Positions 60,088-64,000 of a DNA stretch of 64,000 bases are shown here, in pieces. This DNA is from Octopus vulgaris (taxonomy: Eukaryota), in NCBI GenBank assembly GCA_951406725.2, contig OX597823.1, positions 73,284,001 to 73,348,000 on the forward strand. Direction: 5' to 3'. The position numbers and the translations under genes were made by a program. A model generated the notes under the pieces. It saw only the letters and a list, made by a program, of their open reading frames with translations. It did not search any database and was not told the origin of the DNA. The stretch's first letter is position 1; every line of letters starts with the position of its first letter.

Positions 60088-61506
60088 TACATGCTTATAT
60101 ATGTGTATATATGCATATCCATACTTTATATATACATATGTATGCACATGTGAGTATGTGTGTGCGCGTGTGTATTGAAACAAACACATACGTATATGTA
60201 TATAATAGTACATATATGGTTTTACTTTGTATTTATATTCTGTGTATTCCTGAATTTTTAATTTGTCACCTTTTAAAACGTATCTGACTTCTGTATTCTT
60301 TCGCTCCAACAATTCTTTCTTAATGTCTACAGAGGGAATTGTCATCGAAAAATAGCAAATTGTCTTTGTAAGGTTGCAAAATCTTTTCAGCATTTGACAA
60401 ATTGAGAGACAAAAGAAAGGAACGAGGAATACTACAAATGTCAAATGGAAATCATTGGCTGTGTATTTCCTTTTATCTATTGTCTACTTTGTGCGCTGTA
60501 AAGTCATTTTATCTTTCACTGTCGTGTTCATTCGTGGTGTGTTCAGAGTATTATTCTAATATTCCACTGCGTACCATCTATTGTACATTAAATTACTATA
60601 GATCTTGTAACAAATGTGAAGGGAAATCAGCAGGATTTTAGTTAGAAATTACATATTATATGGTATATGTGCGTATTGGGGAATGGGCATGACTGAATAG
60701 CTAAGAAATTCGTCTCGAGATCATTGTGATCCAATTTCGGCGCTTGGAGCAAGTGTAATCTGCCTTATTTTCTAGTGGAGCTACTCATTTTCAGTGAAGT
60801 TAGAAATACAGAAACTGTATAGACATCTCAGCTTGGTAACGTAGAAAATCACCCTGACTTCGCTGAAATACTACGCTAAAGAATTATGTCAATGTAATAA
60901 CCCCCTCAGACAATAATTCAAAAGACAGCTTGCTTCATTCATCGAACAACTGAAAATGCCATTGTAAAAATCGAGAATGAAACTTTTACTTATTGTTTAA
61001 CTGGATCAAATTGCAATTTTTGTTTCAGGAACGATATGGTAAGGTATCTTCAATAGATTACTGCACTAAGATGAGGAACTTAAATAGATTACAAACTTAG
61101 ATGGGAAACTTTCACTCAAATATGTAATACATTTCAGTGAGACTTAAGATTTCAAACTGAGGATATGGATATAGATATGTTGTAATGCATATAACATGAT
61201 CAAAGTATGATTACTTCAAAACACTTCAAAAAATCTTCACAGCGCTTGCTACAATTCTATTGTAGCTATTACTGGAGGATAATATACGTACATACATATA
61301 CATATACATTATACATACATATATATATATATATTATAAGCGGGATCAGCCATCTGAATGTGGCTAGGGACAGGGCGGGGTGGTGGGGGTGTTACTGATG
61401 CATTTAGCCCCAGGCGACTATAGACGTCACTAGAAGAGTCGACACCATCACGGTGTCCTTGCTAGCCTGTAAAGGGAGATCAGCCTCCCCGAAGATACGG
61501 ATGCTA

Positions 61507-61549
61507 CACACGGACCGGTTTCGAGGTAGTCGCCTCTCGTCAGCGCATG
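61507..61549 (-). ncRNA. Type I hammerhead ribozyme, intact
   Basis: Reverse complement of 61991-62033. Confidence 0.88.
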
Positions 61550-61990
61550 GCAAGCACCGTTCTTCGTTGAGGGACTTCCTCTACAGGCTAGAAATATATA
61601 GATTTTCACAGTAAACACAGTCACTGGCGTAGAAAATCTGTTCGATAACAATAATAAATCTCTGAGCGAGGTATAAACAGTAACTGCTCTGTAATATAAG
61701 CGGGATCAGCCATCTGAATGTGGCTAGGGACAGGGCGGGGTGGTGGGGGTGTTACTGATGCATTTAGCCCCAGGCGACTATAGACGTCACACCCCCACCA
61801 CCCCGCCCTGTCCCTAGCCACATTCAGATGGCTGATCCCGCTTATATTACAGAGCAGTTACTGTTTATACCTCGCTCAGAGATTTATTATTGTTATCGAA
61901 CAGATTTTCTACGCCAGTGACTGTGTTTACTGTGAAAATCTATATTTTTCTAGCCTGTAGAGGAAGTCCTCAACGAAGAACGGTGCTTGC

Positions 61991-62033
61991 CATGCGCTGA
62001 CGAGAGGCGACTACCTCGAAACCGGTCCGTGTG
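61991..62033 (+). ncRNA. Type I hammerhead ribozyme, intact
   Basis: CATGCG-CTGACGA-GAGG-CGACTA-CCTC-GAAA-CCGG-TC-CGTGTG; predicted cut after C62027 (GUC). Confidence 0.88.
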
Positions 62034-62246
62034 TAACATCCGTATCTTCGGGGAGGCTGATCTCCCTTTACAGGCTAGCAAGGACACCGTGATGGTGTCG
62101 GCTCTTCTAGTGACGTCTATAGTCGCCTGGGGCTAAATGCATCAGTAACACCCCCACCACCCCGCCCTGTCCCTAGCCACATTCAGATGGCTGATCCCGC
62201 TTATATTACAGAGCAGTTACTGTTTATACCTCGCTCAGAGATTTAT

Positions 62247-62298
<52 letters not shown>

Positions 62299-62430
62299 GG
62301 AGGGTATCTAATAGATACTACCATGCTAGAGATAGCAGTCCAAACTTAACTCTAAAACCACTTCATGTATTCATACAGCACAAAATGAAAAGACACACAG
62401 ACAAATAAACGAGCAAAAAATTATTGGATA

Positions 62431-62488
62431 ATCCCAGATCCGGATTTCTGGATCAGTATAAAAACATACTCGGTCTCATCAGTGTGAT
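62431..62488 (-). ncRNA. Type I hammerhead, slightly degenerate
   Basis: ATCACA-CTGATGA-GACCGAGTAT..ATACTGATCCA-GAAA-TCCGGA-TC-TGGGAT. Confidence 0.6.
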
Positions 62489-62504
62489 ATACACAGGTAA
62501 TACA

Positions 62505-62535
<31 letters not shown>

Positions 62536-62537
62536 GA

Positions 62538-63323
62538 GGACATCTCCGCTGTCTGTTCCGATTAATATTTGCGGGGGGAAATCATCGTTCCCATCTCGAG
62601 CCTTGCGTGATACGCAGGGAACCGGGTTCGTGGGTAGCAACCCGTCATCAGTGTGTGATAATCATGTGCTAGTAATGAACTTTCCTTCCACACGCAAAAA
62701 TACTATATGATTTTTCCAGTGACACACTGTCGCTGATCTCAAAAAAGGAGAAATACGCAATATTAAATCTCTGACCGAGAAGTAAACAGTAGCAGCACGG
62801 AATCGTAAAATATAATTGCCAACTAAACGTGGGGGACCCATAGAAGACGATGCTACTGTTGTTTTTAGCCCCAGGAGGACCTCTCCTCCAGCTGGATAAC
62901 GCCACACTGTCTGTCTGTGTCCGATTACTATTTGCGAGGGAAAATCATCTTTCCCATCTCTAGCCTTACATGATACACACAGACCCTGGTTTCTGAGTAG
63001 TAGCCCATCGTTAGTTTGTGATATGGCTTTTCCGAGTTTTCATCGCTAGTTCGTGTTTATCACACACTGATGACGGGTTACTACCCAGAAACCCGGGTCT
63101 GTGTGTATCACGTAAGGCTAGAGATGGGAACGATAATTCCCCCTCGCAAATACTAATCGGACACAGACAATGTGTCGTTCGCCAGCTGGGGGAGATGTCC
63201 TCCTGGGGCTAAAAACAACAGTATCATCGACGTCTATGAGACTGCTACATTTAGTTGGCAGTGATATTTTATGATTCTGTACTGCTACTGTTTACTTTCT
63301 CGCTCAAAGATTTAATGTTGCCT
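62538..63323. mobile_element. Second, older ~363-bp hammerhead monomer family in inverted arrangement
   Basis: Period 363 (62558/62921) in the left arm with two decayed minus-strand HHRs (~62610-62660, ~62975-63022); right arm ~63035-63323 is inverted. Confidence 0.85.
63061..63105 (+). ncRNA. Type I hammerhead ribozyme, intact core
   Basis: CACACA-CTGATGA-CGGGT-TACT-ACCCA-GAAA-CCCGGG-TC-TGTGTG; predicted cut after C63099. Confidence 0.85.
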
Positions 63324-63330
63324 ATATATA

Positions 63331-63362: not shown

Positions 63363-63527
63363 ATAAAGAGTTATGAATGGTACAACAATGAACTATAATA
63401 CAAACAATGGGCTATATACTTGTTGTAATTTAGTCATCTATCAGACTATGGATGACTAAATTACAACAGGTATATAGCCCATTGTCTGTATTATAGTGCT
63501 TGTTGTACCATACAGAACTTTTTATTC
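63361..63527. repeat. Long hairpin/palindrome with ~80-bp arms
   Basis: GAATAAAGAGTT...TTAGTCATCTAT-CAGACT-ATGGATGACTAA...AACTTTTTATTC. Confidence 0.9.
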
Positions 63528-63582
63528 TTTGCAAACAATACACAATGCTTCAAGCGAACTTCAATACTCTCCTATATATACA

Positions 63583-63652
63583 TAGCGTATTGGTTATCCA
63601 CATAGTGGTTTATCCCTAGCGTATTAGTTATCCACATAGTGGTTTATCCCTA
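63583..63652. repeat. 34-bp tandem duplication
   Basis: TAGCGTATTRGTTATCCACATAGTGGTTTATCCC x2. Confidence 0.9.
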
Positions 63653-63735: not shown

Positions 63736-64000
63736 TTGTGTTATAAGATATGGATTCAGACAATCGTGTGGCTAGTCCAGAAAGCTCCCCTTACGGTCCC
63801 ACCGTACAATCCACATAGTAAATTTAGCATAGCGTAGAGTGTCAATCGAGATGAGGAGCTTATAAACTATAAGTCCTAGGATTTATAAGAAGTGAATATA
63901 TATATTTATTTAACAACGTGACATCCCTAGGTTTACAACCGTTTCTCAAACTTCTAGAGATAGGGGACATAGAGAATAGTAATCCTAACAATATTTGACC

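Follow-up and report, generated by a model that had tools for sequence, protein, structure and literature searches.

The window, meaning the whole 64-kb stretch of octopus DNA that was analysed, belongs to a 2.8-Gb genome assembly of 227 contigs in which (TA)n and other microsatellites abound. It contains an insertion of a hammerhead repeat, family B, whose two arms are joined 5′ to 5′ near 63023-63034, with their 3′ ends outward (Table 1). The minus arm was aligned to the family B unit over 472 nt (62549-63023) with a period of 363. Together with the inverted partial unit of the plus arm, this bears out the initial annotation, which had read about 1.3 minus-strand units followed by an inverted partial one.

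Table 1. Positions of the repeat insertions and their parts in the window
Feature	Position	Strand	Remarks
Family A insertion, same clan, young	61332-62250		Arms of 458 and 465 nt
Family A hammerhead	61507-61549	-	
Family A hammerhead	61991-62033	+	
(TA)n tract	62500-62535		Directly beside the minus arm
Family B insertion, two arms	62538-63325		~360-nt type I hammerhead repeat
Minus arm	62538-63023	-	1.3 units; 89% identity to B column majority
Hammerhead copy	62613-62657	-	G12 and A13 altered; likely inactive, judged by sequence
Internal copy of shared block 1	62765-62793	-	In minus arm
Copy of shared block 2	62851-62875	-	In minus arm
Hammerhead copy	62976-63020	-	Core G5 to A; likely inactive, judged by sequence
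Plus arm	63034-63325	+	0.8 unit, 292 nt; 91% identity to B majority
Type I hammerhead	63061-63105	+	Predicted cut 63099/63100
Shared block 2	63202-63226	+	
Penelope-type tail	63276-63325	+	From fixed site 1 (~63275) to site 2 (~63318-63325)
Shared block 1	63284-63313	+	Inside tail

The plus-arm hammerhead has a 6-bp stem I, a core divided between 63067-63073 and 63088-63091, and an 8-nt palindromic stem III at 63091-63098. An intact core had been annotated at exactly this position. The core bases are indeed intact and are those of the family B majority, the only such core among the three ribozymes of the locus, but stem II is closed by a mismatch (C63074·A63087).

The insertion overlaps no ORF other than ones of 64-81 aa, and it has no LTR organisation. 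A tblastn search of the 64-kb window with three Penelope-like element (PLE) proteins gave no match. An Rfam scan of 61320-63330 (E ≤ 10) returned no hammerhead, only a microRNA-type hairpin and microsatellite noise; this is without bearing on the fold, because the fold rests on covariation and motif evidence. The 3′ end of the plus arm is the downstream fixed site (site 2). That of the minus arm is short, reaching unit position ~71 and a brief remnant that abuts the (TA)n tract. It lies off the standard ends, and the locus is therefore damaged. The family B locus itself is likely dead, an ordinary decayed copy.

Just downstream of the insertion, a hairpin unrelated to the clan occupies 63392-63497 (50-nt arms, 94% complementary, with a 6-nt loop). 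A tandem repeat with a 34-bp unit is present in about two copies at 63577-63652, with a partial third copy at 63809-63836.

Related families in the genome

The family A insertion lies ~290 bp from the family B insertion and arose independently, in a (TA)n tract of its own. Its arms end at different fixed sites, one at site 1 and one at site 2, each in (TA)n. A second B/C-type copy was found at most 40 bp from an A insertion (L049:1954-2182), consistent with shared targets.

Families A and B had been described as sister families with only short blocks in common. Both blocks are present, in the order described, but the units are colinear throughout. Global alignment gave 222/372 identical columns (60%) and a score of 238; 500 shuffles scored 62.9 ± 12.1, with a maximum of 101. 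The three inter-block segments, 51-57% identical, individually beat 1000/1000 shuffles. A genome-wide search with the tail pattern yielded 780 exact matches, and 0 for a reversed control. These matches led to two further families of the same architecture, C and D, and traces of a fifth, E, were seen at L336 (period 357-358). The clan thus comprises at least four related families in the genome.

Unit lengths of A, B, C and D are 359, 359, 357 and 353 nt, with one hammerhead motif each, and the earlier view that A and B are diverged lineages of one class that keep their unit length holds. Identities between family majorities are 79% (B-C), 64% (B-D), 61% (C-D), 60% (A-C), 59% (A-B) and 57% (A-D). 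By majority sequence the nearest relative of B is C, not A, and "sister" is a loose term for A and B.

First-look searches gave 3071 candidates for B and 1899 for A (the best 40 of each were scored), 2647 for C and 2237 for D; these are not copy numbers. The family sets are best-scoring matches rather than random samples. For family B, 68 segments were 83-95% identical to the column majority (median 90%). Loci of B differ from one another at 18% of sites and loci of A at 2.35%, with 0.9% between same-arm units of A. Judged by these differences, family B is old and family A young.

Insertion ends, tail and target sites

In cut register and relative to the end of block 1, 3′ ends of arms fall either ~35-40 nt upstream or 5-22 nt downstream, giving two fixed sites 40-50 nt apart that flank this block. 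Arms ended at one of the two sites in 35/37 cases for A, 31/49 for B, 35/39 for C and 50/55 for D; the minus arm of the present locus is among the 18/49 B arms that ended elsewhere. None of the mapped arms of A-D had its 3′ end at the predicted ribozyme cut. 5′ ends are scattered. Inverted insertions with both outer ends fixed had one arm per site in 47/48 cases, for which independent and equal choice gives a probability of ~2e-13 (49/2^48), the C and D sets favouring site 2. Queries for C and D stopped at the tail, which biases those sets to site 2; queries for A and B had no such stop.

Flanks shared at least 8 nt in 18/31 non-microsatellite insertions, compared with 10/930 mismatched pairs, and some of these matches include microhomology with the element end. 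(TA)4 was present within 20 nt of the ends in 26/35 cases for A, 8/28 for B and 19/35 for C. Family D (L227-L256) is unlike A-C in having 0/43 ends beside (TA)4, and its tail is altered; it possibly uses another helper.

In vitro work placed the Penelope tail between two internal start sites of the RT (PMC11167929); the tail is found at one end only (PMC8557442), and Penelope duplications are 8-10 bp (PMC3846280). The fixed ends, one-ended tail and duplication-like flank matches of the clan are read as the Penelope signature. Because most copies stop at one of two shared sites, a Penelope mark, the clan likely spreads as RNA, probably circular, by means of a borrowed Penelope RT. EN+ PLEs and the clan are alike in the one-ended tail, a 5′-truncated inverted copy, duplications of 8-13 nt, AT-rich or microsatellite targets and a hammerhead upstream of the tail. 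They differ in that the clan has no ORF, a closed unit, a canonical rather than minimal hammerhead, and a tail of 40-50 nt where EN+ PLEs have 30-40 nt.

Ribozyme and predicted RNA domain

RNAalifold was applied to 32 natural copies from the four families, giving 39 predicted pairs, 20 of which are changed on both sides through a few lineage-level events. The structure used for covariation was placed by hand from family C. All six pairs of stem I are changed on both sides, with 94% of cells paired; the covariation score was 0.315, compared with 0.08-0.15 when partners were slid. In the helix of block 2 with the tail, 3/7 pairs are changed on both sides and 96% of cells are paired. The long rod is only 65% paired in the family C register because registers differ among families. 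Three of five whole-structure measures beat 500/500 shuffles; the other two were matched by shuffles in 418/500 and 500/500. Circular folding of the four family majorities gave MFE z scores of -4.9 to -9.2 (60 shuffles each), and the plus arm of the locus alone gave z = -1.9.

Block 2 contains a 10-nt run (63202-63211) that is invariant across all four family majorities. Its positions 63219-63226 are the 5′ strand of the predicted helix, whose 3′ strand begins the tail. On this model the shared blocks belong to a predicted RNA domain whose conservation extends over the entire unit, rather than being isolated motifs.

Stem III of the majority is a palindrome in every family and has a different sequence in each. 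Core positions 3 and 8 were U-A in 22 and C-G in 18 of 40 motif matches, with 0 mixed; these loci were sampled by position, and the count includes L320+ and L344+, which are probably non-clan. The earlier proposal that the ribozyme fold is kept with compensatory changes is upheld by stem I and by this core pair. Stem and core covariation across lineages indicates selection for the ribozyme. Closure of stem II is G-C in 57/57 copies of A, C·A in 30/48 and T-A in 13/48 of B, C·A in 24/30 of C and A·G in 31/41 of D. The T-A closure of B likely reflects CpG decay.

A U3-A8 core was seen in subfamily A′ (L067, L077, L078, L297, L303, L304) and in family E (L336:2270-3035), the latter with a fifth palindromic stem III. 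PMC4209133 describes this core in minimal hammerheads of a schistosome PLE; in A′ and E it stands in canonical type I motifs.

Pieces of the clan are present in contigs of 4/4 runs from 4 studies. The runs were guessed to be RNA, one is under a second organism label, and the contigs carry no strand, ends or circles and come with no silent control. A contig joint in runs X2 and X5 skips window positions 61909-62105, with the A hammerhead inside; it may represent a short derivative that lacks the ribozyme, or a different family.

Mode of copying and place among known elements

The locus is probably a decayed ~360-nt protein-free hammerhead repeat, a non-LTR retrozyme, likely copied in trans by a PLE RT-endonuclease. 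Tandem copies would be transcribed, and their hammerheads would cut, probably as dimers via the palindromic stem III. The monomers would then be circularised, a step to which we give somewhat better than even credence. A Penelope protein would bind the structured domain of block 2 and tail and nick both strands of AT-rich DNA. One cDNA would start at site 2 and its partner at site 1 of the same template; synthesis would read through the ribozyme site, covering as much as several units, and the cDNAs would be joined to each other at their ends.

Variants were compared between arms. Opposite arms of one locus had variants in common in 130/203 cases for A (64%) and 159/400 for B (40%), and units within one arm in 69% and 39%, respectively; sharing with other loci was 16% and 13%. 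The excess between opposite arms is small in C (21% vs 7%) and D (14% vs 9%). The predicted cut is crossed by 34/37 arms of A and 38/49 of B. The shared variants and the cut-crossing arms therefore point to one template for both arms, likely a circle or an uncut multimer. We lean towards a circular template.

A serious alternative that we nevertheless doubt is that the same helper copies linear read-through RNA, left uncut, from a tandem source locus, with ribozyme and circles dispensable for mobility. Hammerhead cleavage was not required for Penelope insertion in vitro, where ribozyme mutants inserted normally and unprocessed RNA was the main substrate (PMC11167929). It also weighs against the favoured reading that 8/9 Xenopus retrozyme dimers were uncleaved in vitro (bioRxiv 10.64898/2026.07.22.740005). 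Cut-crossing arms and low divergence within loci (0.9% vs 2.35% in A) also fit a homogeneous tandem source, and the longest B arm is 1.76 units. Set against a linear template are the selection for the ribozyme indicated by covariation across lineages, the longest A arm of 5.66 units, which would be unexpected if 5′ truncation only shortens arrays, and the accumulation of related animal retrozymes as circles (PMC7229834).

A single priming event, with the second arm made by fold-back copying and the tail at one end removed by endonuclease resolution, is unlikely. PMC8557442 does ascribe the tail to endonuclease resolution, and in about 6/16 A junctions the two 5′ ends lie no more than 35 nt apart. 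Yet the longer arm can be either one (1892 vs 288 nt, 1386 vs 141 nt), the majority of junctions are without mirror symmetry, and PMC11167929 assigns the tail to two start sites of the RT.

The blocks had also been proposed as promoter or RT-recognition signals. Recurring 3′ ends that bound block 1 favour the RT part; the promoter part is unsupported. That the blocks are DNA-level internal promoter elements, with the fixed ends due to another cause, is improbable. The invariant run of block 2 would suit such elements, as would a loose A-box-like match in B, C and D and the promoters described in PLE pLTRs. However, strict A box, B box and octamer are absent from all four families, T4+ runs occur on the sense strand of each, compensatory changes accompany the predicted pairing of the blocks, and block 1 lies where insertions end. 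A dual role as promoter and RNA domain is compatible with these results. The lack of strict A and B boxes and the presence of internal T4 runs also led us to reject a tRNA-type Pol III SINE.

An autonomous partner was searched for among 6136 GIY-YIG candidates in the genome, of which the best 150 were scored. Many have intact 781-aa frames whose translations resemble PLE RT-EN proteins, and intact PLE ORFs are numerous in the genome; we take these frames to be Neptune-like. No clan tail or unit was found in the PLE ends examined, nor a homologous pLTR of an autonomous PLE among the PLE loci examined. Autonomous PLEs carrying the shared blocks, which the initial annotation suggested looking for, were likewise not found among these loci. 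The repeat itself was rejected as an autonomous PLE: an RT and GIY-YIG ORF is continuous with it in 0/95 tail-bearing arms from 90 loci, many of the arms being short.

These results bear on a reading of the copies as 5′-truncated stumps, the pLTR ends of an autonomous PLE, to which we give very little credence. Every insertion hallmark is PLE-like, and the candidates scored were the best 150 of 6136. Upstream of the hammerhead, however, arms re-enter the post-tail sequence and the previous unit, with no ORF, and none of the 95 arms enters a PLE ORF, although many are short. PLE-adjacent copies at L124 and L062 are separate insertions beyond the PLE ends.

Individual partners were also rejected. 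At L124 a PLE ORF lies 1.3 kb upstream of a clan copy, which was judged a separate insertion because the other top copies of this PLE stop at their own 3′ end; at L062 the clan copy lies beyond the PLE's own end. At L126 other sequence intervenes between the clan copy and the PLE, and the C-rich PLE family beside L024 has a different 3′ end. At L219:883-1737 (the window's contig, from 61411355) and L024:820-1775, a clan arm has an internal PLE fragment joined directly to its 5′ end, both facing the same way. The L219 composite sits between (TA)n tracts; clan sequence was found in 0 of 29 other loci of its PLE family and 0 of 10 downstream extensions. The two cases serve as a lead only: either template switching or insertion with deletion may have produced them, and if the former, they could name the helper.

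Three PLE groups were recorded along the way. L121-L123 (e.g. L121:2245-4587) represent a PLE of high copy number that has numerous intact 781-aa RT-EN frames, an upstream 330-380-aa frame and internal repeats in the 3′ region. A very young family (L124:1800-5005, L136-L164) has 40 scored copies 99-100% identical across 1.1 kb; its copies end in (TA)n, are arranged in inverted fashion and have an AC-rich extension on one arm. The 3′ regions of the C-rich family (L168-L178) contain a degenerate minimal hammerhead-like motif ~75 nt before the 3′ end.

The non-LTR retrozyme is a known class; we assign the clan to it as a new member that likely works like a Penelope pLTR in trans. Metazoan non-LTR retrozymes (Cervera and de la Pena 2020, PMC7229834) are alike in having tandem units of 150-450 bp that encode no protein and carry a single canonical type I hammerhead, a highly self-paired predicted circle, larger TSDs (>4 bp) and two families per genome. 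Axolotl Amex1, described there with a 1-bp stem III and palindromic tetraloop, parallels family A, and Amex2, with a 2-bp stem III and U·U at the base of helix II, parallels B, C and D. Unlike those retrozymes, the octopus clan has ends mapped to two fixed sites, commonly has inverted arms, and conserves its non-ribozyme domain across families 57-79% identical. They accumulate as circles; for the clan, expression, cleavage and circles are predicted. Vertebrate non-LTR retrozymes share the class and a proposed PLE helper (bioRxiv 10.64898/2026.07.22.740005). There, the helper was proposed for 31 vertebrates, 3 insects and 1 anthozoan from co-occurrence and pLTR homology; here the basis is the insertion signature, no homologous pLTR having been found in the PLE loci examined. 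No description of the clan or of retrozyme tail mapping was found in the open-access literature searched.

Tentatively, the clan can be viewed as a portable RNA landing domain, made of the block 2-tail helix and hairpins, that would capture a Penelope protein dimer in trans on a ribozyme-made circle, with the two target strands primed at two fixed sites and family D representing a helper switch. If true, this would explain why all Penelope elements have inverted repeats and a tail at one end only. The retroelement behind the movement of animal retrozymes, and the priming of its RT on them, are questions that PMC7229834 left and that the 2026 preprint approached through co-occurrence and homology. 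To this the clan adds insertion-level evidence on Penelope-type mobilisation of retrozymes. It also offers a substrate of 360 nt that encodes no protein, has its start sites mapped and comes in natural compensatory variants, and that suits the existing in vitro Penelope assay.
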